From: Owenia fusiformis
Taxonomy: Eukaryota
Direction: 5' to 3'
DNA: 64,000 bases
Assembly: GCA_903813345.2 (NCBI GenBank)
Contig: CAIIXF020000001.1
Coordinates: 15,376,001-15,440,000 of the forward strand
Shown piece after piece: positions 1 through 41,745 of the stretch. The first letter of the stretch is position 1, and every line of letters starts with the position of its first letter. Below the pieces are notes generated by a model that was not told the origin of the DNA, did not search any database, and saw only the letters and a list, made by a program, of their open reading frames with translations. The translations under genes were made by a program, and so were the position numbers.

Positions 1-188
1 AATATCGTCAAAATCAAGGGTTTTTGGGGTAAAAAGCGAAAACTGATGATTCAGCAAAAACATTAAATTTGTTCATGAAAATTCCCCTTTTTGCCTCCGT
101 CCAAAATATGTTTCACACTAATAAACTTCAATTCTGGTTGATTCTGAGTAGTTTTAAAAAATTTTGGTCACTTTCACATGTGACTAAT

Positions 189-655
189 AGGCAAAACTGC
201 CCTAATTCACGTCACCATACTAGTCAATGGGCAAAAGGGCAAACGCCTGACTTTTTATCTCGAGTTATGGATTTATGTGGCCTCACTGGCCTATCTGAGG
301 TTCTAAAGCTATGTCTAAGCTACATCTTGACACTAAACTCGATAGGGGCCAATCATCTACTTTTTGAAATAATTGGTCAATTGTGACACTACCCCCTCTC
401 TCTGCAGACACAAATTGAAATTCACAAAAATGAAGGCAAAATTAATACGCCACTTGACTCGAAATTTTCCTTCAGATAACCCAAATAAACGCATTTTCAG
501 AAGAAATGGCATGTTGCCATTGCAAAAAGATTACAACTGTGCCTACATACTAGCTTACTGACTCGTCATGATCACATTTGTGTTGGGCCTACATTTATTT
601 TTGAATACTACTTTTTTCTATTCAGCGGAAGTGACGTATTAGGGCATTTTGGCCT
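189..655. mobile_element. Module A (first copy): 467-bp element with 18-bp TIRs; candidate long terminal direct repeat of a KolobokP-like composite DNA transposon
   Basis: Left end AGGCAAAACTGCCCTAAT versus reverse complement of right end AGGCCAAAATGCCCTAAT (16/18), followed on both sides by ACGTCAC/GTGACGT. Flanked by AAT on both sides. Family assignment is inferred from architecture, size and AG..CT termini only. Confidence 0.75.
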
Positions 656-658
656 AAT

Positions 659-1513
659 AGCCACATGGTTGGATGATTTCTGGCTTTAAATTGCGTTTTT
701 CCAATTTACTAGAGTTTTTCAAGTAGTTTTGTGCAGTTTAAGAATATTCTGACAGCAATTATGAAAAATATGGCTACTTCATTACCCCTGGGGTCATTTT
801 TCCAAGAACCCAATGGTTTTCCTTTAAATTTGACTAGTTTTTCATTTACATCATGAAATCCACTGCCTGATGGTGACATTTTTCAGTATCGTGTCAAGAA
901 TTTGAGTATTTTATTGCATATTGCAATTTTTAGCCAAATCACTGAACCGTGAACCAGAAAATTGGACAAATTTGACCCACTTTTTGGCAAAATCTTACTA
1001 AAATCATCACTTTTTCATACTTTATTCCATTCAACAACCTCCTGATTTGAAAAATGATGACAAATTTGATCAGTTTTGACTCTGGCCTAGAGAATTGGGA
1101 CTTTTGAGATATTTTTAGCTCGAATGTAGTCATTCAGAGTGAACAAATACATCAAAAATTGACACTTAACTCACCAATTTCTGACTGCACCCCCGATATG
1201 TACCTTCTTTCTATACTGGAAACCATAAGATGGGAAATTCAATCTTTATGATGAATAGCAACTCGTTGGCTTCCCCATTTACGACAACAAATGACATTTA
1301 GGGGTCACTAAGGACAAAATTGTAGCCAAATATCGTCAAAATCAAGGGTTTTTGGGGTAAAAAGCGAAAACTGATGATTCAGCAAAAACATTAAATTTGT
1401 TCATGAAAATTCCCCTTTTTGCCTCCGTCCAAAATATGTTTCACACTAATAAACTTCAATTCTGGTTGATTCTGAGTAGTTTTAAAAAATTTTGGTCACT
1501 TTCACATGTGACT
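659..1513. mobile_element. Module B (first full copy): 855-bp non-coding internal region with short inverted ends
   Basis: Begins AGCCACATG and ends CATGTGACT (reverse complement AGTCACATG, 8/9 match). No ORF over about 65 aa lies wholly within it and no transposase motif was recognised. Confidence 0.65.
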
Positions 1514-13500: not shown

Positions 13501-16500
13501 TACTAGTCAATGGGCAAAAGGGCAAACGCCTGACTTTTTATCTCGAGTTATGGATTTATGTGGCCTCACTGGCCTATCTGAGGTTCTAAAGCTATGTCTA
13601 AGCTACATCTTGACACTAAACTCGATAGGGGCCAATCATCTACTTTTTGAAATAATTGGTCAATTGTGACACTACCCCCTCTCTCTGCAGACACAAATTG
13701 AAATTCACAAAAATGAAGGCAAAATTAATACGCCACTTGACTCGAAATTTTCCTTCAGATAACCCAAATAAACGCATTTTCAGAAGAAATGGCATGTTGC
13801 CATTGCAAAAAGATTACAACTGTGCCTACATACTAGCTTACTGACTCGTCATGATCACATTTGTGTTGGGCCTACATTTATTTTTGAATACTACTTTTTT
13901 CTATTCAGCGGAAGTGACGTATTAGGGCATTTTGGCCTAATAGCCACATGGTTGGATGATTTCTGGCTTTAAATTGCGTTTTTCCAATTTACTAGAGTTT
14001 TTCAAGTAGTTTTGTGCAGTTTAAGAATATTCTGACAGCAATTATGAAAAATATGGCTACTTCATTACCCCTGGGGTCATTTTTCCAAGAACCCAATGGT
14101 TTTCCTTTAAATTTGACTAGTTTTTCATTTACATCATGAAATCCACTGCCTGATGGTGACATTTTTCAGTATCGTGTCAAGAATTTGAGTATTTTATTGC
14201 ATATTGCAATTTTTAGCCAAATCACTGAACCGTGAACCAGAAAATTGGACAAATTTGACCCACTTTTTGGCAAAATCTTACTAAAATCATCACTTTTTCA
14301 TACTTTATTCCATTCAACAACCTCCTGATTTGAAAAATGATGACAAATTTGATCAGTTTTGACTCTGGCCTAGAGAATTGGGACTTTTGAGATATTTTTA
14401 GCTCGAATGTAGTCATTCAGAGTGAACAAATACATCAAAAATTGACACTTAACTCACCAATTTCTGACTGCACCCCCGATATGTACCTTCTTTCTATACT
14501 GGAAACCATAAGATGGGAAATTCAATCTTTATGATGAATAGCAACTCGTTGGCTTCCCCATTTACGACAACAAATGACATTTAGGGGTCACTAAGGACAA
14601 AATTGTAGCCAAATATCGTCAAAATCAAGGGTTTTTGGGGTAAAAAGCGAAAACTGATGATTCAGCAAAAACATTAAATTTGTTCATGAAAATTCCCCTT
14701 TTTGCCTCCGTCCAAAATATGTTTCACACTAATAAACTTCAATTCTGGTTGATTCTGAGTAGTTTTAAAAAATTTTGGTCACTTTCACATGTGACTAATA
14801 GGCAAAACTGCCCTAATTCACGTCACCATACTAGTCAATGGGCAAAAGGGCAAACGCCTGACTTTTTATCTCGAGTTATGGATTTATGTGGCCTCACTGG
14901 CCTATCTGAGGTTCTAAAGCTATGTCTAAGCTACATCTTGACACTAAACTCGATAGGGGCCAATCATCTACTTTTTGAAATAATTGGTCAATTGTGACAC
15001 TACCCCCTCTCTCTGCAGACACAAATTGAAATTCACAAAAATGAAGGCAAAATTAATACGCCACTTGACTCGAAATTTTCCTTCAGATAACCCAAATAAA
15101 CGCATTTTCAGAAGAAATGGCATGTTGCCATTGCAAAAAGATTACAACTGTGCCTACATACTAGCTTACTGACTCGTCATGATCACATTTGTGTTGGGCC
15201 TACATTTATTTTTGAATACTACTTTTTTCTATTCAGCGGAAGTGACGTATTAGGGCATTTTGGCCTAATAGCCACATGGTTGGATGATTTCTGGCTTTAA
15301 ATTGCGTTTTTTCCAATTTACTAGAGTTTTTCAAGTAGTTTTGTGCAGTTTAAGAATATTCTGACAGCAATTATGAAAAATATGGCTACTTCATTACCCC
15401 TGGGGTCATTTTTCCAAGAACCCAATGGTTTTCCTTTAAATTTGACTAGTTTTTCATTTACATCATGAAATCCACTGCCTGATGGTGACATTTTTCAGTA
15501 TCGTGTCAAGAATTTGAGTATTTTATTGCATATTGCAATTTTTAGCCAAATCACTGAACCGTGAACCAGAAAATTGGACAAATTTGACCCACTTTTTGGC
15601 AAAATCTTACTAAAATCATCACTTTTTCATACTTTATTCCATTCAACAACCTCCTGATTTGAAAAATGATGACAAATTTGATCAGTTTTGACTCTGGCCT
15701 AGAGAATTGGGACTTTTGAGATATTTTTAGCTCGAATGTAGTCATTCAGAGTGAACAAATACATCAAAAATTGACACTTAACTCACCAATTTCTGACTGC
15801 ACCCCCGATATGTACCTTCTTTCTATACTGGAAACCATAAGATGGGAAATTCAATCTTTATGATGAATAGCAACTCGTTGGCTTCCCCATTTACGACAAC
15901 AAATGACATTTAGGGGTCACTAAGGACAAAATTGTAGCCAAATATCGTCAAAATCAAGGGTTTTTGGGGTAAAAAGCGAAAACTGATGATTCAGCAAAAA
16001 CATTAAATTTGTTCATGAAAATTCCCCTTTTTGCCTCCGTCCAAAATATGTTTCACACTAATAAACTTCAATTCTGGTTGATTCTGAGTAGTTTTAAAAA
16101 ATTTTGGTCACTTTCACATGTGACTAATAGCCACATGGTTGGATGATTTCTGGCTTTAAATTGCGTTTTTCCAATTTACTAGAGTTTTTCAAGTAGTTTT
16201 GTGCAGTTTAAGAATATTCTGACAGCAATTATGAAAAATATGGCTACTTCATTACCCCTGGGGTCATTTTTCCAAGAACCCAATGGTTTTCCTTTAAATT
16301 TGACTAGTTTTTCATTTACATCATGAAATCCACTGCCTGATGGTGACATTTTTCAGTATCGTGTCAAGAATTTGAGTATTTTATTGCATATTGCAATTTT
16401 TAGCCAAATCACTGAACCGTGAACCAGAAAATTGGACAAATTTGACCCACTTTTTGGCAAAATCTTACTAAAATCATCACTTTTTCATACTTTATTCCAT

Positions 16501-19500
16501 TCAACAACCTCCTGATTTGAAAAATGATGACAAATTTGATCAGTTTTGACTCTGGCCTAGAGAATTGGGACTTTTGAGATATTTTTAGCTCGAATGTAGT
16601 CATTCAGAGTGAACAAATACATCAAAAATTGACACTTAACTCACCAATTTCTGACTGCACCCCCGATATGTACCTTCTTTCTATACTGGAAACCATAAGA
16701 TGGGAAATTCAATCTTTATGATGAATAGCAACTCGTTGGCTTCCCCATTTACGACAACAAATGACATTTAGGGGTCACTAAGGACAAAATTGTAGCCAAA
16801 TATCGTCAAAATCAAGGGTTTTTGGGGTAAAAAGCGAAAACTGATGATTCAGCAAAAACATTAAATTTGTTCATGAAAATTCCCCTTTTTGCCTCCGTCC
16901 AAAATATGTTTCACACTAATAAACTTCAATTCTGGTTGATTCTGAGTAGTTTTAAAAAATTTTGGTCACTTTCACATGTGACTAATAGGCAAAACTGCCC
17001 TAATTCACGTCACCATACTAGTCAATGGGCAAAAGGGCAAACGCCTGACTTTTTATCTCGAGTTATGGATTTATGTGGCCTCACTGGCCTATCTGAGGTT
17101 CTAAAGCTATGTCTAAGCTACATCTTGACACTAAACTCGATAGGGGCCAATCATCTACTTTTTGAAATAATTGGTCAATTGTGACACTACCCCCTCTCTC
17201 TGCAGACACAAATTGAAATTCACAAAAATGAAGGCAAAATTAATACGCCACTTGACTCGAAATTTTCCTTCAGATAACCCAAATAAACGCATTTTCAGAA
17301 GAAATGGCATGTTGCCATTGCAAAAAGATTACAACTGTGCCTACATACTAGCTTACTGACTCGTCATGATCACATTTGTGTTGGGCCTACATTTATTTTT
17401 GAATACTACTTTTTTCTATTCAGCGGAAGTGACGTATTAGGGCATTTTGGCCTAATAGCCACATGGTTGGATGATTTCTGGCTTTAAATTGCGTTTTTCC
17501 AATTTACTAGAGTTTTTCAAGTAGTTTTGTGCAGTTTAAGAATATTCTGACAGCAATTATGAAAAATATGGCTACTTCATTACCCCTGGGGTCATTTTTC
17601 CAAGAACCCAATGGTTTTCCTTTAAATTTGACTAGTTTTTCATTTACATCATGAAATCCACTGCCTGATGGTGACATTTTTCAGTATCGTGTCAAGAATT
17701 TGAGTATTTTATTGCATATTGCAATTTTTAGCCAAATCACTGAACCGTGAACCAGAAAATTGGACAAATTTGACCCACTTTTTGGCAAAATCTTACTAAA
17801 ATCATCACTTTTTCATACTTTATTCCATTCAACAACCTCCTGATTTGAAAAATGATGACAAATTTGATCAGTTTTGACTCTGGCCTAGAGAATTGGGACT
17901 TTTGAGATATTTTTAGCTCGAATGTAGTCATTCAGAGTGAACAAATACATCAAAAATTGACACTTAACTCACCAATTTCTGACTGCACCCCCGATATGTA
18001 CCTTCTTTCTATACTGGAAACCATAAGATGGGAAATTCAATCTTTATGATGAATAGCAACTCGTTGGCTTCCCCATTTACGACAACAAATGACATTTAGG
18101 GGTCACTAAGGACAAAATTGTAGCCAAATATCGTCAAAATCAAGGGTTTTTGGGGTAAAAAGCGAAAACTGATGATTCAGCAAAAACATTAAATTTGTTC
18201 ATGAAAATTCCCCTTTTTGCCTCCGTCCAAAATATGTTTCACACTAATAAACTTCAATTCTGGTTGATTCTGAGTAGTTTTAAAAAATTTTGGTCACTTT
18301 CACATGTGACTAATAGGCAAAACTGCCCTAATTCACGTCACCATACTAGTCAATGGGCAAAAGGGCAAACGCCTGACTTTTTATCTCGAGTTATGGATTT
18401 ATGTGGCCTCACTGGCCTATCTGAGGTTCTAAAGCTATGTCTAAGCTACATCTTGACACTAAACTCGATAGGGGCCAATCATCTACTTTTTGAAATAATT
18501 GGTCAATTGTGACACTACCCCCTCTCTCTGCAGACACAAATTGAAATTCACAAAAATGAAGGCAAAATTAATACGCCACTTGACTCGAAATTTTCCTTCA
18601 GATAACCCAAATAAACGCATTTTCAGAAGAAATGGCATGTTGCCATTGCAAAAAGATTACAACTGTGCCTACATACTAGCTTACTGACTCGTCATGATCA
18701 CATTTGTGTTGGGCCTACATTTATTTTTGAATACTACTTTTTTCTATTCAGCGGAAGTGACGTATTAGGGCATTTTGGCCTAATAGCCACATGGTTGGAT
18801 GATTTCTGGCTTTAAATTGCGTTTTTCCAATTTACTAGAGTTTTTCAAGTAGTTTTGTGCAGTTTAAGAATATTCTGACAGCAATTATGAAAAATATGGC
18901 TACTTCATTACCCCTGGGGTCATTTTTCCAAGAACCCAATGGTTTTCCTTTAAATTTGACTAGTTTTTCATTTACATCATGAAATCCACTGCCTGATGGT
19001 GACATTTTTCAGTATCGTGTCAAGAATTTGAGTATTTTATTGCATATTGCAATTTTTAGCCAAATCACTGAACCGTGAACCAGAAAATTGGACAAATTTG
19101 ACCCACTTTTTGGCAAAATCTTACTAAAATCATCACTTTTTCATACTTTATTCCATTCAACAACCTCCTGATTTGAAAAATGATGACAAATTTGATCAGT
19201 TTTGACTCTGGCCTAGAGAATTGGGACTTTTGAGATATTTTTAGCTCGAATGTAGTCATTCAGAGTGAACAAATACATCAAAAATTGACACTTAACTCAC
19301 CAATTTCTGACTGCACCCCCGATATGTACCTTCTTTCTATACTGGAAACCATAAGATGGGAAATTCAATCTTTATGATGAATAGCAACTCGTTGGCTTCC
19401 CCATTTACGACAACAAATGACATTTAGGGGTCACTAAGGACAAAATTGTAGCCAAATATCGTCAAAATCAAGGGTTTTTGGGGTAAAAAGCGAAAACTGA

Positions 19501-22500: not shown

Positions 22501-25500
22501 CACTGCCTGATGGTGACATTTTTCAGTATCGTGTCAAGAATTTGAGTATTTTATTGCATATTGCAATTTTTAGCCAAATCACTGAACCGTGAACCAGAAA
22601 ATTGGACAAATTTGACCCACTTTTTGGCAAAATCTTACTAAAATCATCACTTTTTCATACTTTATTCCATTCAACAACCTCCTGATTTGAAAAATGATGA
22701 CAAATTTGATCAGTTTTGACTCTGGCCTAGAGAATTGGGACTTTTGAGATATTTTTAGCTCGAATGTAGTCATTCAGAGTGAACAAATACATCAAAAATT
22801 GACACTTAACTCACCAATTTCTGACTGCACCCCCGATATGTACCTTCTTTCTATACTGGAAACCATAAGATGGGAAATTCAATCTTTATGATGAATAGCA
22901 ACTCGTTGGCTTCCCCATTTACGACAACAAATGACATTTAGGGGTCACTAAGGACAAAATTGTAGCCAAATATCGTCAAAATCAAGGGTTTTTGGGGTAA
23001 AAAGCGAAAACTGATGATTCAGCAAAAACATTAAATTTGTTCATGAAAATTCCCCTTTTTGCCTCCGTCCAAAATATGTTTCACACTAATAAACTTCAAT
23101 TCTGGTTGATTCTGAGTAGTTTTAAAAAATTTTGGTCACTTTCACATGTGACTAATAGCCACATGGTTGGATGATTTCTGGCTTTAAATTGCGTTTTTCC
23201 AATTTACTAGAGTTTTTCAAGTAGTTTTGTGCAGTTTAAGAATATTCTGACAGCAATTATGAAAAATATGGCTACTTCATTACCCCTGGGGTCATTTTTC
23301 CAAGAACCCAATGGTTTTCCTTTAAATTTGACTAGTTTTTCATTTACATCATGAAATCCACTGCCTGATGGTGACATTTTTCAGTATCGTGTCAAGAATT
23401 TGAGTATTTTATTGCATATTGCAATTTTTAGCCAAATCACTGAACCGTGAACCAGAAAATTGGACAAATTTGACCCACTTTTTGGCAAAATCTTACTAAA
23501 ATCATCACTTTTTCATACTTTATTCCATTCAACAACCTCCTGATTTGAAAAATGATGACAAATTTGATCAGTTTTGACTCTGGCCTAGAGAATTGGGACT
23601 TTTGAGATATTTTTAGCTCGAATGTAGTCATTCAGAGTGAACAAATACATCAAAAATTGACACTTAACTCACCAATTTCTGACTGCACCCCCGATATGTA
23701 CCTTCTTTCTATACTGGAAACCATAAGATGGGAAATTCAATCTTTATGATGAATAGCAACTCGTTGGCTTCCCCATTTACGACAACAAATGACATTTAGG
23801 GGTCACTAAGGACAAAATTGTAGCCAAATATCGTCAAAATCAAGGGTTTTTGGGGTAAAAAGCGAAAACTGATGATTCAGCAAAAACATTAAATTTGTTC
23901 ATGAAAATTCCCCTTTTTGCCTCCGTCCAAAATATGTTTCACACTAATAAACTTCAATTCTGGTTGATTCTGAGTAGTTTTAAAAAATTTTGGTCACTTT
24001 CACATGTGACTAATAGGCAAAACTGCCCTAATTCACGTCACCATACTAGTCAATGGGCAAAAGGGCAAACGCCTGACTTTTTATCTCGAGTTATGGATTT
24101 ATGTGGCCTCACTGGCCTATCTGAGGTTCTAAAGCTATGTCTAAGCTACATCTTGACACTAAACTCGATAGGGGCCAATCATCTACTTTTTGAAATAATT
24201 GGTCAATTGTGACACTACCCCCTCTCTCTGCAGACACAAATTGAAATTCACAAAAATGAAGGCAAAATTAATACGCCACTTGACTCGAAATTTTCCTTCA
24301 GATAACCCAAATAAACGCATTTTCAGAAGAAATGGCATGTTGCCATTGCAAAAAGATTACAACTGTGCCTACATACTAGCTTACTGACTCGTCATGATCA
24401 CATTTGTGTTGGGCCTACATTTATTTTTGAATACTACTTTTTTCTATTCAGCGGAAGTGACGTATTAGGGCATTTTGGCCTAATAGCCACATGGTTGGAT
24501 GATTTCTGGCTTTAAATTGCGTTTTTCCAATTTACTAGAGTTTTTCAAGTAGTTTTGTGCAGTTTAAGAATATTCTGACAGCAATTATGAAAAATATGGC
24601 TACTTCATTACCCCTGGGGTCATTTTTCCAAGAACCCAATGGTTTTCCTTTAAATTTGACTAGTTTTTCATTTACATCATGAAATCCACTGCCTGATGGT
24701 GACATTTTTCAGTATCGTGTCAAGAATTTGAGTATTTTATTGCATATTGCAATTTTTAGCCAAATCACTGAACCGTGAACCAGAAAATTGGACAAATTTG
24801 ACCCACTTTTTGGCAAAATCTTACTAAAATCATCACTTTTTCATACTTTATTCCATTCAACAACCTCCTGATTTGAAAAATGATGACAAATTTGATCAGT
24901 TTTGACTCTGGCCTAGAGAATTGGGACTTTTGAGATATTTTTAGCTCGAATGTAGTCATTCAGAGTGAACAAATACATCAAAAATTGACACTTAACTCAC
25001 CAATTTCTGACTGCACCCCCGATATGTACCTTCTTTCTATACTGGAAACCATAAGATGGGAAATTCAATCTTTATGATGAATAGCAACTCGTTGGCTTCC
25101 CCATTTACGACAACAAATGACATTTAGGGGTCACTAAGGACAAAATTGTAGCCAAATATCGTCAAAATCAAGGGTTTTTGGGGTAAAAAGCGAAAACTGA
25201 TGATTCAGCAAAAACATTAAATTTGTTCATGAAAATTCCCCTTTTTGCCTCCGTCCAAAATATGTTTCACACTAATAAACTTCAATTCTGGTTGATTCTG
25301 AGTAGTTTTAAAAAATTTTGGTCACTTTCACATGTGACTAATAGGCAAAACTGCCCTAATTCACGTCACCATACTAGTCAATGGGCAAAAGGGCAAACGC
25401 CTGACTTTTTATCTCGAGTTATGGATTTATGTGGCCTCACTGGCCTATCTGAGGTTCTAAAGCTATGTCTAAGCTACATCTTGACACTAAACTCGATAGG

Positions 25501-28500
25501 GGCCAATCATCTACTTTTTGAAATAATTGGTCAATTGTGACACTACCCCCTCTCTCTGCAGACACAAATTGAAATTCACAAAAATGAAGGCAAAATTAAT
25601 ACGCCACTTGACTCGAAATTTTCCTTCAGATAACCCAAATAAACGCATTTTCAGAAGAAATGGCATGTTGCCATTGCAAAAAGATTACAACTGTGCCTAC
25701 ATACTAGCTTACTGACTCGTCATGATCACATTTGTGTTGGGCCTACATTTATTTTTGAATACTACTTTTTTCTATTCAGCGGAAGTGACGTATTAGGGCA
25801 TTTTGGCCTAATAGCCACATGGTTGGATGATTTCTGGCTTTAAATTGCGTTTTTCCAATTTACTAGAGTTTTTCAAGTAGTTTTGTGCAGTTTAAGAATA
25901 TTCTGACAGCAATTATGAAAAATATGGCTACTTCATTACCCCTGGGGTCATTTTTCCAAGAACCCAATGGTTTTCCTTTAAATTTGACTAGTTTTTCATT
26001 TACATCATGAAATCCACTGCCTGATGGTGACATTTTTCAGTATCGTGTCAAGAATTTGAGTATTTTATTGCATATTGCAATTTTTAGCCAAATCACTGAA
26101 CCGTGAACCAGAAAATTGGACAAATTTGACCCACTTTTTGGCAAAATCTTACTAAAATCATCACTTTTTCATACTTTATTCCATTCAACAACCTCCTGAT
26201 TTGAAAAATGATGACAAATTTGATCAGTTTTGACTCTGGCCTAGAGAATTGGGACTTTTGAGATATTTTTAGCTCGAATGTAGTCATTCAGAGTGAACAA
26301 ATACATCAAAAATTGACACTTAACTCACCAATTTCTGACTGCACCCCCGATATGTACCTTCTTTCTATACTGGAAACCATAAGATGGGAAATTCAATCTT
26401 TATGATGAATAGCAACTCGTTGGCTTCCCCATTTACGACAACAAATGACATTTAGGGGTCACTAAGGACAAAATTGTAGCCAAATATCGTCAAAATCAAG
26501 GGTTTTTGGGGTAAAAAGCGAAAACTGATGATTCAGCAAAAACATTAAATTTGTTCATGAAAATTCCCCTTTTTGCCTCCGTCCAAAATATGTTTCACAC
26601 TAATAAACTTCAATTCTGGTTGATTCTGAGTAGTTTTAAAAAATTTTGGTCACTTTCACATGTGACTAATAGGCAAAACTGCCCTAATTCACGTCACCAT
26701 ACTAGTCAATGGGCAAAAGGGCAAACGCCTGACTTTTTATCTCGAGTTATGGATTTATGTGGCCTCACTGGCCTATCTGAGGTTCTAAAGCTATGTCTAA
26801 GCTACATCTTGACACTAAACTCGATAGGGGCCAATCATCTACTTTTTGAAATAATTGGTCAATTGTGACACTACCCCCTCTCTCTGCAGACACAAATTGA
26901 AATTCACAAAAATGAAGGCAAAATTAATACGCCACTTGACTCGAAATTTTCCTTCAGATAACCCAAATAAACGCATTTTCAGAAGAAATGGCATGTTGCC
27001 ATTGCAAAAAGATTACAACTGTGCCTACATACTAGCTTACTGACTCGTCATGATCACATTTGTGTTGGGCCTACATTTATTTTTGAATACTACTTTTTTC
27101 TATTCAGCGGAAGTGACGTATTAGGGCATTTTGGCCTAATAGCCACATGGTTGGATGATTTCTGGCTTTAAATTGCGTTTTTCCAATTTACTAGAGTTTT
27201 TCAAGTAGTTTTGTGCAGTTTAAGAATATTCTGACAGCAATTATGAAAAATATGGCTACTTCATTACCCCTGGGGTCATTTTTCCAAGAACCCAATGGTT
27301 TTCCTTTAAATTTGACTAGTTTTTCATTTACATCATGAAATCCACTGCCTGATGGTGACATTTTTCAGTATCGTGTCAAGAATTTGAGTATTTTATTGCA
27401 TATTGCAATTTTTAGCCAAATCACTGAACCGTGAACCAGAAAATTGGACAAATTTGACCCACTTTTTGGCAAAATCTTACTAAAATCATCACTTTTTCAT
27501 ACTTTATTCCATTCAACAACCTCCTGATTTGAAAAATGATGACAAATTTGATCAGTTTTGACTCTGGCCTAGAGAATTGGGACTTTTGAGATATTTTTAG
27601 CTCGAATGTAGTCATTCAGAGTGAACAAATACATCAAAAATTGACACTTAACTCACCAATTTCTGACTGCACCCCCGATATGTACCTTCTTTCTATACTG
27701 GAAACCATAAGATGGGAAATTCAATCTTTATGATGAATAGCAACTCGTTGGCTTCCCCATTTACGACAACAAATGACATTTAGGGGTCACTAAGGACAAA
27801 ATTGTAGCCAAATATCGTCAAAATCAAGGGTTTTTGGGGTAAAAAGCGAAAACTGATGATTCAGCAAAAACATTAAATTTGTTCATGAAAATTCCCCTTT
27901 TTGCCTCCGTCCAAAATATGTTTCACACTAATAAACTTCAATTCTGGTTGATTCTGAGTAGTTTTAAAAAATTTTGGTCACTTTCACATGTGACTAATAG
28001 GCAAAACTGCCCTAATTCACGTCACCATACTAGTCAATGGGCAAAAGGGCAAACGCCTGACTTTTTATCTCGAGTTATGGATTTATGTGGCCTCACTGGC
28101 CTATCTGAGGTTCTAAAGCTATGTCTAAGCTACATCTTGACACTAAACTCGATAGGGGCCAATCATCTACTTTTTGAAATAATTGGTCAATTGTGACACT
28201 ACCCCCTCTCTCTGCAGACACAAATTGAAATTCACAAAAATGAAGGCAAAATTAATACGCCACTTGACTCGAAATTTTCCTTCAGATAACCCAAATAAAC
28301 GCATTTTCAGAAGAAATGGCATGTTGCCATTGCAAAAAGATTACAACTGTGCCTACATACTAGCTTACTGACTCGTCATGATCACATTTGTGTTGGGCCT
28401 ACATTTATTTTTGAATACTACTTTTTTCTATTCAGCGGAAGTGACGTATTAGGGCATTTTGGCCTAATAGCCACATGGTTGGATGATTTCTGGCTTTAAA

Positions 28501-31500
28501 TTGCGTTTTTCCAATTTACTAGAGTTTTTCAAGTAGTTTTGTGCAGTTTAAGAATATTCTGACAGCAATTATGAAAAATATGGCTACTTCATTACCCCTG
28601 GGGTCATTTTTCCAAGAACCCAATGGTTTTCCTTTAAATTTGACTAGTTTTTCATTTACATCATGAAATCCACTGCCTGATGGTGACATTTTTCAGTATC
28701 GTGTCAAGAATTTGAGTATTTTATTGCATATTGCAATTTTTAGCCAAATCACTGAACCGTGAACCAGAAAATTGGACAAATTTGACCCACTTTTTGGCAA
28801 AATCTTACTAAAATCATCACTTTTTCATACTTTATTCCATTCAACAACCTCCTGATTTGAAAAATGATGACAAATTTGATCAGTTTTGACTCTGGCCTAG
28901 AGAATTGGGACTTTTGAGATATTTTTAGCTCGAATGTAGTCATTCAGAGTGAACAAATACATCAAAAATTGACACTTAACTCACCAATTTCTGACTGCAC
29001 CCCCGATATGTACCTTCTTTCTATACTGGAAACCATAAGATGGGAAATTCAATCTTTATGATGAATAGCAACTCGTTGGCTTCCCCATTTACGACAACAA
29101 ATGACATTTAGGGGTCACTAAGGACAAAATTGTAGCCAAATATCGTCAAAATCAAGGGTTTTTGGGGTAAAAAGCGAAAACTGATGATTCAGCAAAAACA
29201 TTAAATTTGTTCATGAAAATTCCCCTTTTTGCCTCCGTCCAAAATATGTTTCACACTAATAAACTTCAATTCTGGTTGATTCTGAGTAGTTTTAAAAAAT
29301 TTTGGTCACTTTCACATGTGACTAATAGGCAAAACTGCCCTAATTCACGTCACCATACTAGTCAATGGGCAAAAGGGCAAACGCCTGACTTTTTATCTCG
29401 AGTTATGGATTTATGTGGCCTCACTGGCCTATCTGAGGTTCTAAAGCTATGTCTAAGCTACATCTTGACACTAAACTCGATAGGGGCCAATCATCTACTT
29501 TTTGAAATAATTGGTCAATTGTGACACTACCCCCTCTCTCTGCAGACACAAATTGAAATTCACAAAAATGAAGGCAAAATTAATACGCCACTTGACTCGA
29601 AATTTTCCTTCAGATAACCCAAATAAACGCATTTTCAGAAGAAATGGCATGTTGCCATTGCAAAAAGATTACAACTGTGCCTACATACTAGCTTACTGAC
29701 TCGTCATGATCACATTTGTGTTGGGCCTACATTTATTTTTGAATACTACTTTTTTCTATTCAGCGGAAGTGACGTATTAGGGCATTTTGGCCTAATAGCC
29801 ACATGGTTGGATGATTTCTGGCTTTAAATTGCGTTTTTCCAATTTACTAGAGTTTTTCAAGTAGTTTTGTGCAGTTTAAGAATATTCTGACAGCAATTAT
29901 GAAAAATATGGCTACTTCATTACCCCTGGGGTCATTTTTCCAAGAACCCAATGGTTTTCCTTTAAATTTGACTAGTTTTTCATTTACATCATGAAATCCA
30001 CTGCCTGATGGTGACATTTTTCAGTATCGTGTCAAGAATTTGAGTATTTTATTGCATATTGCAATTTTTAGCCAAATCACTGAACCGTGAACCAGAAAAT
30101 TGGACAAATTTGACCCACTTTTTGGCAAAATCTTACTAAAATCATCACTTTTTCATACTTTATTCCATTCAACAACCTCCTGATTTGAAAAATGATGACA
30201 AATTTGATCAGTTTTGACTCTGGCCTAGAGAATTGGGACTTTTGAGATATTTTTAGCTCGAATGTAGTCATTCAGAGTGAACAAATACATCAAAAATTGA
30301 CACTTAACTCACCAATTTCTGACTGCACCCCCGATATGTACCTTCTTTCTATACTGGAAACCATAAGATGGGAAATTCAATCTTTATGATGAATAGCAAC
30401 TCGTTGGCTTCCCCATTTACGACAACAAATGACATTTAGGGGTCACTAAGGACAAAATTGTAGCCAAATATCGTCAAAATCAAGGGTTTTTGGGGTAAAA
30501 AGCGAAAACTGATGATTCAGCAAAAACATTAAATTTGTTCATGAAAATTCCCCTTTTTGCCTCCGTCCAAAATATGTTTCACACTAATAAACTTCAATTC
30601 TGGTTGATTCTGAGTAGTTTTAAAAAATTTTGGTCACTTTCACATGTGACTAATAGGCAAAACTGCCCTAATTCACGTCACCATACTAGTCAATGGGCAA
30701 AAGGGCAAACGCCTGACTTTTTATCTCGAGTTATGGATTTATGTGGCCTCACTGGCCTATCTGAGGTTCTAAAGCTATGTCTAAGCTACATCTTGACACT
30801 AAACTCGATAGGGGCCAATCATCTACTTTTTGAAATAATTGGTCAATTGTGACACTACCCCCTCTCTCTGCAGACACAAATTGAAATTCACAAAAATGAA
30901 GGCAAAATTAATACGCCACTTGACTCGAAATTTTCCTTCAGATAACCCAAATAAACGCATTTTCAGAAGAAATGGCATGTTGCCATTGCAAAAAGATTAC
31001 AACTGTGCCTACATACTAGCTTACTGACTCGTCATGATCACATTTGTGTTGGGCCTACATTTATTTTTGAATACTACTTTTTTCTATTCAGCGGAAGTGA
31101 CGTATTAGGGCATTTTGGCCTAATAGCCACATGGTTGGATGATTTCTGGCTTTAAATTGCGTTTTTCCAATTTACTAGAGTTTTTCAAGTAGTTTTGTGC
31201 AGTTTAAGAATATTCTGACAGCAATTATGAAAAATATGGCTACTTCATTACCCCTGGGGTCATTTTTCCAAGAACCCAATGGTTTTCCTTTAAATTTGAC
31301 TAGTTTTTCATTTACATCATGAAATCCACTGCCTGATGGTGACATTTTTCAGTATCGTGTCAAGAATTTGAGTATTTTATTGCATATTGCAATTTTTAGC
31401 CAAATCACTGAACCGTGAACCAGAAAATTGGACAAATTTGACCCACTTTTTGGCAAAATCTTACTAAAATCATCACTTTTTCATACTTTATTCCATTCAA

Positions 31501-34500
31501 CAACCTCCTGATTTGAAAAATGATGACAAATTTGATCAGTTTTGACTCTGGCCTAGAGAATTGGGACTTTTGAGATATTTTTAGCTCGAATGTAGTCATT
31601 CAGAGTGAACAAATACATCAAAAATTGACACTTAACTCACCAATTTCTGACTGCACCCCCGATATGTACCTTCTTTCTATACTGGAAACCATAAGATGGG
31701 AAATTCAATCTTTATGATGAATAGCAACTCGTTGGCTTCCCCATTTACGACAACAAATGACATTTAGGGGTCACTAAGGACAAAATTGTAGCCAAATATC
31801 GTCAAAATCAAGGGTTTTTGGGGTAAAAAGCGAAAACTGATGATTCAGCAAAAACATTAAATTTGTTCATGAAAATTCCCCTTTTTGCCTCCGTCCAAAA
31901 TATGTTTCACACTAATAAACTTCAATTCTGGTTGATTCTGAGTAGTTTTAAAAAATTTTGGTCACTTTCACATGTGACTAATAGGCAAAACTGCCCTAAT
32001 TCACGTCACCATACTAGTCAATGGGCAAAAGGGCAAACGCCTGACTTTTTATCTCGAGTTATGGATTTATGTGGCCTCACTGGCCTATCTGAGGTTCTAA
32101 AGCTATGTCTAAGCTACATCTTGACACTAAACTCGATAGGGGCCAATCATCTACTTTTTGAAATAATTGGTCAATTGTGACACTACCCCCTCTCTCTGCA
32201 GACACAAATTGAAATTCACAAAAATGAAGGCAAAATTAATACGCCACTTGACTCGAAATTTTCCTTCAGATAACCCAAATAAACGCATTTTCAGAAGAAA
32301 TGGCATGTTGCCATTGCAAAAAGATTACAACTGTGCCTACATACTAGCTTACTGACTCGTCATGATCACATTTGTGTTGGGCCTACATTTATTTTTGAAT
32401 ACTACTTTTTTCTATTCAGCGGAAGTGACGTATTAGGGCATTTTGGCCTAATAGCCACATGGTTGGATGATTTCTGGCTTTAAATTGCGTTTTTCCAATT
32501 TACTAGAGTTTTTCAAGTAGTTTTGTGCAGTTTAAGAATATTCTGACAGCAATTATGAAAAATATGGCTACTTCATTACCCCTGGGGTCATTTTTCCAAG
32601 AACCCAATGGTTTTCCTTTAAATTTGACTAGTTTTTCATTTACATCATGAAATCCACTGCCTGATGGTGACATTTTTCAGTATCGTGTCAAGAATTTGAG
32701 TATTTTATTGCATATTGCAATTTTTAGCCAAATCACTGAACCGTGAACCAGAAAATTGGACAAATTTGACCCACTTTTTGGCAAAATCTTACTAAAATCA
32801 TCACTTTTTCATACTTTATTCCATTCAACAACCTCCTGATTTGAAAAATGATGACAAATTTGATCAGTTTTGACTCTGGCCTAGAGAATTGGGACTTTTG
32901 AGATATTTTTAGCTCGAATGTAGTCATTCAGAGTGAACAAATACATCAAAAATTGACACTTAACTCACCAATTTCTGACTGCACCCCCGATATGTACCTT
33001 CTTTCTATACTGGAAACCATAAGATGGGAAATTCAATCTTTATGATGAATAGCAACTCGTTGGCTTCCCCATTTACGACAACAAATGACATTTAGGGGTC
33101 ACTAAGGACAAAATTGTAGCCAAATATCGTCAAAATCAAGGGTTTTTGGGGTAAAAAGCGAAAACTGATGATTCAGCAAAAACATTAAATTTGTTCATGA
33201 AAATTCCCCTTTTTGCCTCCGTCCAAAATATGTTTCACACTAATAAACTTCAATTCTGGTTGATTCTGAGTAGTTTTAAAAAATTTTGGTCACTTTCACA
33301 TGTGACTAATAGGCAAAACTGCCCTAATTCACGTCACCATACTAGTCAATGGGCAAAAGGGCAAACGCCTGACTTTTTATCTCGAGTTATGGATTTATGT
33401 GGCCTCACTGGCCTATCTGAGGTTCTAAAGCTATGTCTAAGCTACATCTTGACACTAAACTCGATAGGGGCCAATCATCTACTTTTTGAAATAATTGGTC
33501 AATTGTGACACTACCCCCTCTCTCTGCAGACACAAATTGAAATTCACAAAAATGAAGGCAAAATTAATACGCCACTTGACTCGAAATTTTCCTTCAGATA
33601 ACCCAAATAAACGCATTTTCAGAAGAAATGGCATGTTGCCATTGCAAAAAGATTACAACTGTGCCTACATACTAGCTTACTGACTCGTCATGATCACATT
33701 TGTGTTGGGCCTACATTTATTTTTGAATACTACTTTTTTCTATTCAGCGGAAGTGACGTATTAGGGCATTTTGGCCTAATAGCCACATGGTTGGATGATT
33801 TCTGGCTTTAAATTGCGTTTTTCCAATTTACTAGAGTTTTTCAAGTAGTTTTGTGCAGTTTAAGAATATTCTGACAGCAATTATGAAAAATATGGCTACT
33901 TCATTACCCCTGGGGTCATTTTTCCAAGAACCCAATGGTTTTCCTTTAAATTTGACTAGTTTTTCATTTACATCATGAAATCCACTGCCTGATGGTGACA
34001 TTTTTCAGTATCGTGTCAAGAATTTGAGTATTTTATTGCATATTGCAATTTTTAGCCAAATCACTGAACCGTGAACCAGAAAATTGGACAAATTTGACCC
34101 ACTTTTTGGCAAAATCTTACTAAAATCATCACTTTTTCATACTTTATTCCATTCAACAACCTCCTGATTTGAAAAATGATGACAAATTTGATCAGTTTTG
34201 ACTCTGGCCTAGAGAATTGGGACTTTTGAGATATTTTTAGCTCGAATGTAGTCATTCAGAGTGAACAAATACATCAAAAATTGACACTTAACTCACCAAT
34301 TTCTGACTGCACCCCCGATATGTACCTTCTTTCTATACTGGAAACCATAAGATGGGAAATTCAATCTTTATGATGAATAGCAACTCGTTGGCTTCCCCAT
34401 TTACGACAACAAATGACATTTAGGGGTCACTAAGGACAAAATTGTAGCCAAATATCGTCAAAATCAAGGGTTTTTGGGGTAAAAAGCGAAAACTGATGAT

Positions 34501-37500
34501 TCAGCAAAAACATTAAATTTGTTCATGAAAATTCCCCTTTTTGCCTCCGTCCAAAATATGTTTCACACTAATAAACTTCAATTCTGGTTGATTCTGAGTA
34601 GTTTTAAAAAATTTTGGTCACTTTCACATGTGACTAATAGGCAAAACTGCCCTAATTCACGTCACCATACTAGTCAATGGGCAAAAGGGCAAACGCCTGA
34701 CTTTTTATCTCGAGTTATGGATTTATGTGGCCTCACTGGCCTATCTGAGGTTCTAAAGCTATGTCTAAGCTACATCTTGACACTAAACTCGATAGGGGCC
34801 AATCATCTACTTTTTGAAATAATTGGTCAATTGTGACACTACCCCCTCTCTCTGCAGACACAAATTGAAATTCACAAAAATGAAGGCAAAATTAATACGC
34901 CACTTGACTCGAAATTTTCCTTCAGATAACCCAAATAAACGCATTTTCAGAAGAAATGGCATGTTGCCATTGCAAAAAGATTACAACTGTGCCTACATAC
35001 TAGCTTACTGACTCGTCATGATCACATTTGTGTTGGGCCTACATTTATTTTTGAATACTACTTTTTTCTATTCAGCGGAAGTGACGTATTAGGGCATTTT
35101 GGCCTAATAGCCACATGGTTGGATGATTTCTGGCTTTAAATTGCGTTTTTCCAATTTACTAGAGTTTTTCAAGTAGTTTTGTGCAGTTTAAGAATATTCT
35201 GACAGCAATTATGAAAAATATGGCTACTTCATTACCCCTGGGGTCATTTTTCCAAGAACCCAATGGTTTTCCTTTAAATTTGACTAGTTTTTCATTTACA
35301 TCATGAAATCCACTGCCTGATGGTGACATTTTTCAGTATCGTGTCAAGAATTTGAGTATTTTATTGCATATTGCAATTTTTAGCCAAATCACTGAACCGT
35401 GAACCAGAAAATTGGACAAATTTGACCCACTTTTTGGCAAAATCTTACTAAAATCATCACTTTTTCATACTTTATTCCATTCAACAACCTCCTGATTTGA
35501 AAAATGATGACAAATTTGATCAGTTTTGACTCTGGCCTAGAGAATTGGGACTTTTGAGATATTTTTAGCTCGAATGTAGTCATTCAGAGTGAACAAATAC
35601 ATCAAAAATTGACACTTAACTCACCAATTTCTGACTGCACCCCCGATATGTACCTTCTTTCTATACTGGAAACCATAAGATGGGAAATTCAATCTTTATG
35701 ATGAATAGCAACTCGTTGGCTTCCCCATTTACGACAACAAATGACATTTAGGGGTCACTAAGGACAAAATTGTAGCCAAATATCGTCAAAATCAAGGGTT
35801 TTTGGGGTAAAAAGCGAAAACTGATGATTCAGCAAAAACATTAAATTTGTTCATGAAAATTCCCCTTTTTGCCTCCGTCCAAAATATGTTTCACACTAAT
35901 AAACTTCAATTCTGGTTGATTCTGAGTAGTTTTAAAAAATTTTGGTCACTTTCACATGTGACTAATAGGCAAAACTGCCCTAATTCACGTCACCATACTA
36001 GTCAATGGGCAAAAGGGCAAACGCCTGACTTTTTATCTCGAGTTATGGATTTATGTGGCCTCACTGGCCTATCTGAGGTTCTAAAGCTATGTCTAAGCTA
36101 CATCTTGACACTAAACTCGATAGGGGCCAATCATCTACTTTTTGAAATAATTGGTCAATTGTGACACTACCCCCTCTCTCTGCAGACACAAATTGAAATT
36201 CACAAAAATGAAGGCAAAATTAATACGCCACTTGACTCGAAATTTTCCTTCAGATAACCCAAATAAACGCATTTTCAGAAGAAATGGCATGTTGCCATTG
36301 CAAAAAGATTACAACTGTGCCTACATACTAGCTTACTGACTCGTCATGATCACATTTGTGTTGGGCCTACATTTATTTTTGAATACTACTTTTTTCTATT
36401 CAGCGGAAGTGACGTATTAGGGCATTTTGGCCTAATAGCCACATGGTTGGATGATTTCTGGCTTTAAATTGCGTTTTTCCAATTTACTAGAGTTTTTCAA
36501 GTAGTTTTGTGCAGTTTAAGAATATTCTGACAGCAATTATGAAAAATATGGCTACTTCATTACCCCTGGGGTCATTTTTCCAAGAACCCAATGGTTTTCC
36601 TTTAAATTTGACTAGTTTTTCATTTACATCATGAAATCCACTGCCTGATGGTGACATTTTTCAGTATCGTGTCAAGAATTTGAGTATTTTATTGCATATT
36701 GCAATTTTTAGCCAAATCACTGAACCGTGAACCAGAAAATTGGACAAATTTGACCCACTTTTTGGCAAAATCTTACTAAAATCATCACTTTTTCATACTT
36801 TATTCCATTCAACAACCTCCTGATTTGAAAAATGATGACAAATTTGATCAGTTTTGACTCTGGCCTAGAGAATTGGGACTTTTGAGATATTTTTAGCTCG
36901 AATGTAGTCATTCAGAGTGAACAAATACATCAAAAATTGACACTTAACTCACCAATTTCTGACTGCACCCCCGATATGTACCTTCTTTCTATACTGGAAA
37001 CCATAAGATGGGAAATTCAATCTTTATGATGAATAGCAACTCGTTGGCTTCCCCATTTACGACAACAAATGACATTTAGGGGTCACTAAGGACAAAATTG
37101 TAGCCAAATATCGTCAAAATCAAGGGTTTTTGGGGTAAAAAGCGAAAACTGATGATTCAGCAAAAACATTAAATTTGTTCATGAAAATTCCCCTTTTTGC
37201 CTCCGTCCAAAATATGTTTCACACTAATAAACTTCAATTCTGGTTGATTCTGAGTAGTTTTAAAAAATTTTGGTCACTTTCACATGTGACTAATAGGCAA
37301 AACTGCCCTAATTCACGTCACCATACTAGTCAATGGGCAAAAGGGCAAACGCCTGACTTTTTATCTCGAGTTATGGATTTATGTGGCCTCACTGGCCTAT
37401 CTGAGGTTCTAAAGCTATGTCTAAGCTACATCTTGACACTAAACTCGATAGGGGCCAATCATCTACTTTTTGAAATAATTGGTCAATTGTGACACTACCC

Positions 37501-40500
37501 CCTCTCTCTGCAGACACAAATTGAAATTCACAAAAATGAAGGCAAAATTAATACGCCACTTGACTCGAAATTTTCCTTCAGATAACCCAAATAAACGCAT
37601 TTTCAGAAGAAATGGCATGTTGCCATTGCAAAAAGATTACAACTGTGCCTACATACTAGCTTACTGACTCGTCATGATCACATTTGTGTTGGGCCTACAT
37701 TTATTTTTGAATACTACTTTTTTCTATTCAGCGGAAGTGACGTATTAGGGCATTTTGGCCTAATAGCCACATGGTTGGATGATTTCTGGCTTTAAATTGC
37801 GTTTTTCCAATTTACTAGAGTTTTTCAAGTAGTTTTGTGCAGTTTAAGAATATTCTGACAGCAATTATGAAAAATATGGCTACTTCATTACCCCTGGGGT
37901 CATTTTTCCAAGAACCCAATGGTTTTCCTTTAAATTTGACTAGTTTTTCATTTACATCATGAAATCCACTGCCTGATGGTGACATTTTTCAGTATCGTGT
38001 CAAGAATTTGAGTATTTTATTGCATATTGCAATTTTTAGCCAAATCACTGAACCGTGAACCAGAAAATTGGACAAATTTGACCCACTTTTTGGCAAAATC
38101 TTACTAAAATCATCACTTTTTCATACTTTATTCCATTCAACAACCTCCTGATTTGAAAAATGATGACAAATTTGATCAGTTTTGACTCTGGCCTAGAGAA
38201 TTGGGACTTTTGAGATATTTTTAGCTCGAATGTAGTCATTCAGAGTGAACAAATACATCAAAAATTGACACTTAACTCACCAATTTCTGACTGCACCCCC
38301 GATATGTACCTTCTTTCTATACTGGAAACCATAAGATGGGAAATTCAATCTTTATGATGAATAGCAACTCGTTGGCTTCCCCATTTACGACAACAAATGA
38401 CATTTAGGGGTCACTAAGGACAAAATTGTAGCCAAATATCGTCAAAATCAAGGGTTTTTGGGGTAAAAAGCGAAAACTGATGATTCAGCAAAAACATTAA
38501 ATTTGTTCATGAAAATTCCCCTTTTTGCCTCCGTCCAAAATATGTTTCACACTAATAAACTTCAATTCTGGTTGATTCTGAGTAGTTTTAAAAAATTTTG
38601 GTCACTTTCACATGTGACTAATAGGCAAAACTGCCCTAATTCACGTCACCATACTAGTCAATGGGCAAAAGGGCAAACGCCTGACTTTTTATCTCGAGTT
38701 ATGGATTTATGTGGCCTCACTGGCCTATCTGAGGTTCTAAAGCTATGTCTAAGCTACATCTTGACACTAAACTCGATAGGGGCCAATCATCTACTTTTTG
38801 AAATAATTGGTCAATTGTGACACTACCCCCTCTCTCTGCAGACACAAATTGAAATTCACAAAAATGAAGGCAAAATTAATACGCCACTTGACTCGAAATT
38901 TTCCTTCAGATAACCCAAATAAACGCATTTTCAGAAGAAATGGCATGTTGCCATTGCAAAAAGATTACAACTGTGCCTACATACTAGCTTACTGACTCGT
39001 CATGATCACATTTGTGTTGGGCCTACATTTATTTTTGAATACTACTTTTTTCTATTCAGCGGAAGTGACGTATTAGGGCATTTTGGCCTAATAGCCACAT
39101 GGTTGGATGATTTCTGGCTTTAAATTGCGTTTTTCCAATTTACTAGAGTTTTTCAAGTAGTTTTGTGCAGTTTAAGAATATTCTGACAGCAATTATGAAA
39201 AATATGGCTACTTCATTACCCCTGGGGTCATTTTTCCAAGAACCCAATGGTTTTCCTTTAAATTTGACTAGTTTTTCATTTACATCATGAAATCCACTGC
39301 CTGATGGTGACATTTTTCAGTATCGTGTCAAGAATTTGAGTATTTTATTGCATATTGCAATTTTTAGCCAAATCACTGAACCGTGAACCAGAAAATTGGA
39401 CAAATTTGACCCACTTTTTGGCAAAATCTTACTAAAATCATCACTTTTTCATACTTTATTCCATTCAACAACCTCCTGATTTGAAAAATGATGACAAATT
39501 TGATCAGTTTTGACTCTGGCCTAGAGAATTGGGACTTTTGAGATATTTTTAGCTCGAATGTAGTCATTCAGAGTGAACAAATACATCAAAAATTGACACT
39601 TAACTCACCAATTTCTGACTGCACCCCCGATATGTACCTTCTTTCTATACTGGAAACCATAAGATGGGAAATTCAATCTTTATGATGAATAGCAACTCGT
39701 TGGCTTCCCCATTTACGACAACAAATGACATTTAGGGGTCACTAAGGACAAAATTGTAGCCAAATATCGTCAAAATCAAGGGTTTTTGGGGTAAAAAGCG
39801 AAAACTGATGATTCAGCAAAAACATTAAATTTGTTCATGAAAATTCCCCTTTTTGCCTCCGTCCAAAATATGTTTCACACTAATAAACTTCAATTCTGGT
39901 TGATTCTGAGTAGTTTTAAAAAATTTTGGTCACTTTCACATGTGACTAATAGGCAAAACTGCCCTAATTCACGTCACCATACTAGTCAATGGGCAAAAGG
40001 GCAAACGCCTGACTTTTTATCTCGAGTTATGGATTTATGTGGCCTCACTGGCCTATCTGAGGTTCTAAAGCTATGTCTAAGCTACATCTTGACACTAAAC
40101 TCGATAGGGGCCAATCATCTACTTTTTGAAATAATTGGTCAATTGTGACACTACCCCCTCTCTCTGCAGACACAAATTGAAATTCACAAAAATGAAGGCA
40201 AAATTAATACGCCACTTGACTCGAAATTTTCCTTCAGATAACCCAAATAAACGCATTTTCAGAAGAAATGGCATGTTGCCATTGCAAAAAGATTACAACT
40301 GTGCCTACATACTAGCTTACTGACTCGTCATGATCACATTTGTGTTGGGCCTACATTTATTTTTGAATACTACTTTTTTCTATTCAGCGGAAGTGACGTA
40401 TTAGGGCATTTTGGCCTAATAGCCACATGGTTGGATGATTTCTGGCTTTAAATTGCGTTTTTCCAATTTACTAGAGTTTTTCAAGTAGTTTTGTGCAGTT

Positions 40501-41278
40501 TAAGAATATTCTGACAGCAATTATGAAAAATATGGCTACTTCATTACCCCTGGGGTCATTTTTCCAAGAACCCAATGGTTTTCCTTTAAATTTGACTAGT
40601 TTTTCATTTACATCATGAAATCCACTGCCTGATGGTGACATTTTTCAGTATCGTGTCAAGAATTTGAGTATTTTATTGCATATTGCAATTTTTAGCCAAA
40701 TCACTGAACCGTGAACCAGAAAATTGGACAAATTTGACCCACTTTTTGGCAAAATCTTACTAAAATCATCACTTTTTCATACTTTATTCCATTCAACAAC
40801 CTCCTGATTTGAAAAATGATGACAAATTTGATCAGTTTTGACTCTGGCCTAGAGAATTGGGACTTTTGAGATATTTTTAGCTCGAATGTAGTCATTCAGA
40901 GTGAACAAATACATCAAAAATTGACACTTAACTCACCAATTTCTGACTGCACCCCCGATATGTACCTTCTTTCTATACTGGAAACCATAAGATGGGAAAT
41001 TCAATCTTTATGATGAATAGCAACTCGTTGGCTTCCCCATTTACGACAACAAATGACATTTAGGGGTCACTAAGGACAAAATTGTAGCCAAATATCGTCA
41101 AAATCAAGGGTTTTTGGGGTAAAAAGCGAAAACTGATGATTCAGCAAAAACATTAAATTTGTTCATGAAAATTCCCCTTTTTGCCTCCGTCCAAAATATG
41201 TTTCACACTAATAAACTTCAATTCTGGTTGATTCTGAGTAGTTTTAAAAAATTTTGGTCACTTTCACATGTGACTAAT

Positions 41279-41745
41279 AGGCAAAACTGCCCTAATTCAC
41301 GTCACCATACTAGTCAATGGGCAAAAGGGCAAACGCCTGACTTTTTATCTCGAGTTATGGATTTATGTGGCCTCACTGGCCTATCTGAGGTTCTAAAGCT
41401 ATGTCTAAGCTACATCTTGACACTAAACTCGATAGGGGCCAATCATCTACTTTTTGAAATAATTGGTCAATTGTGACACTACCCCCTCTCTCTGCAGACA
41501 CAAATTGAAATTCACAAAAATGAAGGCAAAATTAATACGCCACTTGACTCGAAATTTTCCTTCAGATAACCCAAATAAACGCATTTTCAGAAGAAATGGC
41601 ATGTTGCCATTGCAAAAAGATTACAACTGTGCCTACATACTAGCTTACTGACTCGTCATGATCACATTTGTGTTGGGCCTACATTTATTTTTGAATACTA
41701 CTTTTTTCTATTCAGCGGAAGTGACGTATTAGGGCATTTTGGCCT
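41279..41745. mobile_element. Terminal copy of module A, forming the right boundary of the array
   Basis: Complete copy ending ...TTTTGGCCT, followed by unique sequence TTGCAAAAGAGG instead of AATAGCC. Confidence 0.9.

Follow-up and report, generated by a model that had tools for sequence, protein, structure and literature searches.

A two-module tandem array in Owenia fusiformis, probably a multimer of a non-autonomous transposon of KolobokP architecture

The analysed stretch of DNA (the window) comprises 64,000 nucleotides of the Owenia fusiformis contig CAIIXF020000001.1 (assembly GCA_903813345.2, positions 15,376,001 to 15,440,000). Over positions 1-41745 of the window, two non-coding modules, A (467 bp) and B (855 bp), are arrayed head to tail. 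The array has module-exact junctions, contains a higher-order repeat and lacks coding capacity, and its modules are highly abundant in independent sequencing runs. It is probably a multimer of a non-autonomous, non-coding transposon of KolobokP architecture that grew in place by unequal exchange. The multimer would have the form (LTDR-INT)n-LTDR, in which module A, a small element with inverted ends of its own, would be the long terminal direct repeat (LTDR) and AAT-B-AAT the internal region (INT).

Anatomy of the array

The top self-match of the array by autocorrelation was at a lag of 1328, with an identity of 0.85 that is reduced by phase shifts alone. Tandem Repeats Finder is blind to this 1,328-bp period, as the longest period it handles is 500. 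The order of the modules was obtained from BLAST of A and B onto the window and from an exact parse, which gave a partial B followed by 30 complete A and 32 complete B in a single orientation. All 30 copies of A are 467 bp in length and 100% identical. Of B, 28 copies are identical, and the remaining four carry T6 in place of T5 at a single homopolymer. The inner spacers are AAT in 62 of 62 cases. A preliminary description of this DNA had proposed a 1328-bp unit made of A, bounded by terminal inverted repeats (TIRs), then AAT, B and AAT, in at least 30 copies and ending on a complete A; each of these statements was confirmed. The array ends at the last base of a complete A, the next letters being TTG (TTGCAAAAG), and BLAST found zero copies of either module in the rest of the window (41746-64000).

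When the array was cut at the 14-letter start of module A, 30 starts and 29 A-to-A intervals were obtained. The spacing was 1328 in 23 of the intervals, 1329 in three and 2186/2187 in the other three, where an A module is missing and the array thus departs from strict 1328 periodicity. The preliminary description had overlooked the three absent A modules, the tripled block that contains them and the inverted ends of B described below. At the three B-AAT-B sites, which lie 3,514 bp apart (Table 1), exactly one AAT is retained, as against the AAT-A-AAT expected. The sites belong to a higher-order unit, A-B-B-A-B, of 3,514 bp, which is present three times and produces an autocorrelation peak at lag 3514, and they are probably one event copied within this repeat. 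The triplication indicates that unequal exchange or segmental duplication acted inside the array. The portion from 24015 to 41745 (17.7 kb) is perfectly periodic, with no marker at all.

The inverted ends of module A are 18 nt in length and complementary at 16 of 18 positions (binomial p = 2 × 10^-8), and no ends as good were found among 200,000 segments of 467 bp drawn at random from the flank. Beyond these ends there is a 2-nt indel followed by seven more matching nucleotides (ACGTCAC). Module B has inverted ends matching at 8 of 9 positions (AGCCACATG / CATGTGACT; p = 1 × 10^-4), and 52 of 200,000 flank segments were as good; these ends are weaker than those of A, yet are unlikely to be accidental. 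Both modules begin with AG and finish with CT, so that every junction reads CT-AAT-AG, an odd palindrome of seven letters. Comparison of A with B gave short matches at chance level only, which ruled out B as a diverged copy of A. A 7+3+7 palindrome within A was also considered and was dropped, as it is at about chance expectation.

Independent sequencing runs and coding capacity

Part of the array end together with its flank is contained in 20 runs from six studies; no RNA run is among the holders of this sequence in the run index. The segment B-AAT-A-flank was compared with the contigs of three DNA runs (X1, X2 and X19) and with the raw reads of one RNA run (X22). The summed word depth along all of A and B was 350,000-740,000 in X1 and 730,000-1,100,000 in X2, against 59-73 and 21-49, respectively, in the unique flank at 41818-42217. 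Relative to the unique flank, the depth of A and B is about 10,000-fold in X1 and 24,000-fold in X2; since a sum of contig depths does not measure copy number, these values were taken as being of the order of 10^4 unit-equivalents only. A family of this order would represent megabases of DNA.

The ratio of A to B depth was 1.29 in X1 and 1.08 in X2. As the ratio is near 1, most A in these two runs is accompanied by B, as it is in arrays. The A-spacer-B junction was found in the contigs of both runs, with spacer variants. Among the joints listed, A-to-A junctions with other spacers were present in X2, and A thus also exists in other arrangements, without B. The unique-flank contigs of X1 and X2 end at 41745/41746. 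At seven positions in B (40663, 40687, 40737, 41108, 41136, 41228 and 41229), nearly all of the X1 and X2 depth carries another letter than the window. The array is thus a minority variant, uniform at this locus, within a family that is large and diverse. Contigs over the whole stretch, including the repeat-rich flank, were present in each of the three bands of identity (at least 99%, 95-99% and 90-95%). An exact 23-mer of A had no matches in metagenome contigs.

No coding remnants were identified in the unit: the longest stop-to-stop frame is 117 amino acids, and this frame, the one submitted, had no Pfam match at E 0.01. An Rfam scan of 39000-64000, which takes in the last 2.7 kb of the array, returned no match, nor did a tRNA scan of 41746-64000. 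In X22, of which about 6 in 100 of the run was read, both strands of A and B were covered to a depth of about 3-56 reads. This RNA depth could be explained by a trace carry-over of DNA, given about 10^4 genomic copies.

The probable KolobokP architecture and its alternatives

KolobokP elements have the structure LTDR-INT-LTDR, with LTDRs of about 450 or about 660 bp, the 450 class including cases of 473 and 480 bp (Kojima & Bao 2022, PMC9587614). According to the same description, the hosts are mainly lophotrochozoans, the LTDRs have TIRs of their own (11-18 bp, perfect or imperfect) and 5'-RR/YY-3' termini, and target duplications of 3-5 bp (3-4 or 4-5) surround the whole insertion. In autonomous elements, the LTDR pair encloses a transposase of the DDD/E type together with a His-Me nuclease; non-autonomous families of the Pacific oyster measure 1,738-3,261 bp. 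Solo LTDRs and (LTDR-INT)n-LTDR multimers are common, and routes for their formation are discussed; 0-12 multimers per family are tabulated for three molluscs and 24-30 for a clam, and in most tabulated families solo LTDRs equal or outnumber monomers. An LTDR is sometimes absent between INTs, with a micro-deletion of 3-4 bp at the INT-INT junction, and in one example the INT has TATA at both ends and a single TATA is kept at the junction (PMC9587614).

The array agrees with this description in several respects. Module A, at 467 bp in 30 of 30 copies, is close to the 450-bp class of LTDRs, and the length of its inverted ends lies within the published range. Its AG...CT termini fit the RR/YY rule, a weak test that is passed by chance about once in 16. 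Neighbouring units share one LTDR, and the right end of the array closes on a full LTDR (the left end lies outside the window). The INT begins and ends with the same three letters (AAT), and three base pairs are lost at each INT-INT junction. A monomer of the form A-INT-A would here be 1,795 bp, which is in the size range of the non-autonomous families. From this agreement we infer membership of Kolobok, as we do the enzymes involved and the order of events set out below. The KolobokP-like architecture of the preliminary description thus stood on its testable features and gained the 3-bp loss, which it had not mentioned; the inverted ends of B and its AAT flanks make the 'internal region' one reading among others.

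As the unit encodes nothing, its enzymes would have to come in trans. Cutting and moving would be performed by a transposase supplied in this manner, possibly also by the His-Me nuclease of the lineage. Starting from a single founder unit, the array would have expanded in place as the 467-bp A copies of sister chromatids or homologues underwent unequal exchange, and growth of this type would account for near-identical copies with private letters. A later loss of one A and one AAT would have produced the INT-INT junction. The loss may have occurred by a transposase-type LTDR excision, to which the loss of exactly an LTDR and one spacer is ascribed in PMC9587614, or through a deletion between the 7-bp CTAATAG words that every junction contains. 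Since the latter deletion yields an identical product, the loss of A does not prove transposase action. Further unequal exchange would then have tripled the ABBAB block.

Several points weigh against the KolobokP assignment. The fit is one of architecture, judged against the published description. No autonomous partner was seen in 41746-64000 (frames of at least 70 amino acids, Pfam on six only). The INT has inverted ends of its own, a trait that the text of PMC9587614 does not describe for INTs, and these ends, with AAT on both sides, fit a second, independent element. The near-equal depth of A and B indicates no large excess of solo A, in contrast to the KolobokP families rich in solo LTDRs in that text; the ratio is about 4 in X19, and the picture thus differs between runs. 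The abundance is an order of magnitude from summed depth, and the perfect 17.7-kb stretch may be mis-counted by the assembler.

The main alternative, an unlikely one, is that A and B represent separate, unrelated miniature inverted-repeat elements from another superfamily that duplicates 3 bp, which came to be adjacent or nested by chance and were then co-amplified by unequal exchange; B could, for example, have inserted at an A-AAT-A junction or in the AAT next to A. A 'double insertion seeds a satellite' route has been proposed for Drosophila transposons (bioRxiv 10.1101/158386). The inverted ends of B, the AAT on both of its sides resembling a target duplication, the dissimilarity of A and B, and the A-to-A junctions listed in X2, which show that A exists without B, are all consistent with two elements. 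A PIF/Harbinger-type or other 3-bp miniature element would have an equal duplication on both sides. The AAT flanks both sides of 32 of 32 copies of B, which is compatible with such an element but inseparable from the structure of the array; the terminal A has AAT on its left and TTG on its right, and AAT is thus not simply the target duplication of A. Furthermore, the length, end signature and end length of A fall inside the narrow KolobokP range, the INT-INT junction minus 3 bp is a described KolobokP trait, and none of the tests matched a superfamily that duplicates 3 bp.

It is rather improbable that the same element formed its array at once, and not by stepwise unequal crossover, through a 1,328-bp circle (A-AAT-B-AAT) that was either copied in rolling-circle fashion or inserted repeatedly by targeted integration. 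The circle would resemble the copy-out-paste-in intermediates of the IS3 and IS256 types of insertion sequence (IS), with 3-bp spacers, or to the 'translocatable unit' proposed for KolobokP (PMC9587614, Fig. 5b), where the footprints of LTDR excision are likened to IS3/IS256 circles. The 30 identical copies of A and 32 near-identical copies of B would suit a single burst, as would the unvarying 3-bp spacer between abutted inverted ends and the odd palindrome CTA-A-TAG at every junction. However, the identity is equally explained by recent or ongoing homogenisation, and the ABBAB triplication requires unequal exchange or segmental duplication in any case. The circle itself was not observed, contigs being unable to reveal circles.

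We would give similarly little weight to a KolobokP-type element turned major satellite (of the order of 10^4 units) in which enzymes acting at the junctions, and not passive unequal crossover, build the arrays and maintain their uniformity. Kojima and Bao speculate that a semi-palindromic 'circle junction' is a target of the His-Me nuclease (PMC9587614); the CTA-A-TAG junctions, with their abutted ends and constant spacer, might be targets of this type, and the same machinery might act on B, which has its own ends, as a second module. If this were true, the array would be a eukaryotic analogue of amplification through IS junctions or translocatable units, and a nuclease-driven route to satellite DNA.

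An artefact, in which repeat collapse or expansion during assembly or polishing produced the length of the array or its perfect identity, is very unlikely. While the markerless periodicity of the last 17.7 kb and the sole point variant, a T5/T6 homopolymer of the sort typical of long-read error, could be explained in this way, both modules, the A-spacer-B junction and the boundary between array and flank were seen again in the contigs of independent runs belonging to three studies, the B-B variants and the higher-order repeat are structured and not random, and an artefact would alter the copy count, not the nature of the element. Least probable of all is a plain 1,328-bp satellite with no transposon origin, which would accord with the very high abundance, the near-equal depth of A and B in X1 and X2 and the lack of any link to a transposase, but would make a coincidence of the inverted ends of A, of an array that stops at the exact last base of such an end (one position in 1,328) and of a sole structural variant that removes precisely A and one spacer.

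The tandem junctions and circles of IS3 and IS256 and the translocatable units of IS26 are cited as analogies in PMC9587614. The array resembles bacterial IS junctions in its abutted inverted ends, in a spacer of constant length equal to that of the target duplication and in its head-to-tail elements. It differs from them in the eukaryotic host, the two alternating modules, the lack of an encoded transposase and the lack of an observed circle. Dimers of IS30 and IS21 are a further bacterial case of such tandem junctions. Tandem arrays of long terminal repeat retrotransposons and terminal-repeat retrotransposons in miniature (TRIMs) are another case of satellites formed from transposon tandems (cited in PMC9587614). 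As in the transposon-born satellites proposed for Drosophila (bioRxiv 10.1101/158386) and in TRIM arrays, an element with terminal direct repeats has here been expanded, probably by unequal exchange, with terminal repeats shared between units. Those cases concern retrotransposons or DNA transposons of other superfamilies; here, by contrast, inverted ends bound the shared repeat, which is an element in its own right.

On the KolobokP reading, the array would be a clean and very young case of a cut-and-paste transposon with terminal direct repeats becoming satellite DNA, offering module-exact junctions, a datable loss of a terminal repeat and, in the higher-order repeat, a record of unequal exchange. 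The preliminary description had taken it for a transposon becoming a macrosatellite, which is not new for the lineage. The kind of element, the multimers and the candidate mechanisms are already in print (PMC9587614), and the array extends the known picture without opening a new one. The new features would be one more non-autonomous family, inverted ends on the INT itself and, chiefly, the scale: more than 41 kb (30 A and 32 B), about 10^4-fold the depth of the unique flank, and A and B in near-equal amounts, which is unlike KolobokP as described in the text of PMC9587614. The supplementary consensus set of that paper may already include the family. Among titles and abstracts on Kolobok, LTDRs and macrosatellites, in which coverage of subscription journals is incomplete, no publication on a KolobokP-derived satellite was found beyond PMC9587614. 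If the abundance estimate holds, the family makes up megabases of the host genome, would be the most amplified KolobokP-type family in comparison with those in the text of that paper, and would be a good system in which to test a homing-type nuclease as a driver of array growth.

The right flank and neighbouring sequence

The coordinates of the features of the array and of its right boundary are given in Table 1.

Table 1. Features of the A/B array and its right boundary (positions in the window).
Feature	Position	Strand	Remarks
Partial module B (B positions 671-855)	1-185	+	BLAST, 100% over 185 nt; array continues past the left window edge
Array, 30 complete A and 32 complete B	189-41745	+	AAT after each module but the last A
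Higher-order repeat A-B-B-A-B, three copies	14800-25342	+	3,515 + 3,514 + 3,514 bp; one B-AAT-B per copy
Single AAT at first B-B (INT-INT) junction	16126-16128	+	Others at 19640-19642 and 23154-23156
Module A, representative copy (candidate LTDR)	39951-40417	+	467 bp; termini AG...CT
Candidate INT (AAT + module B + AAT)	40418-41278	+	Module B (855 bp) at 40421-41275; non-coding
Terminal complete module A	41279-41745	+	Closes the array
Left 18-nt inverted end of terminal A	41279-41296	+	
Right 18-nt inverted end of terminal A	41728-41745	+	16/18 complementary to the left end
Right flank TTGC	41746-41749	.	Candidate for one half of a target-site duplication; the array's left end lies outside the window

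The array ends 6.7 kb upstream of a single open frame of 1,675 codons (48428-53455, + strand), in which Pfam identified a RING finger. The named proteins closest to its product (38-45% identity) are Topors-like and come from a nemertean, bivalves, a chiton, gastropods and an annelid; the protein itself is encoded on a contig of 62.2 Mb. These relatives, which belong to several phyla, point to a lophotrochozoan host. The frame is intron-less, and its C-terminal half contains coding tandem repeats of 24-99 bp (51734-52711) that yield repeats rich in Ser, Pro, Thr and Gly.

Between the array and this frame, several repeats were noted. A 50-bp piece of the flank (42219-42269) reaches a depth of about 5 × 10^5 in X1 and X2, 23,000 in X19 and about 850-990 RNA reads in X22 (6% read). 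Thousands of reads continue from it into other sequence on both sides, it had no Rfam or tRNA match, and it resembles a piece of a transcribed repeat of very high abundance. Among the joints listed, contigs of X1, X2 and X19 and 30 RNA reads of X22 skip 42536-43090 (555 bp), joining 42535 to 43091 with two shared letters. The surrounding 42.2-43.4 kb is highly repeated, and the 555-bp segment resembles a small element that lies within another repeat and that other copies of this repeat lack. A long inverted repeat at 45584-46268 resembles a foldback or long-TIR element; its 114-nt arms are 87% complementary and 457 nt apart, and more inverted pairs are nested within it.

Downstream of the Topors-like frame, a 145-bp tandem repeat unrelated to the A/B array is present at 54906-55658 (5.2 copies, 82% matches). 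On the minus strand, exon-like pieces of a GMC oxidoreductase were identified at 58783-61812, with GMC_oxred_C at 58783-59394 and GMC_oxred_N at 61564-61812.

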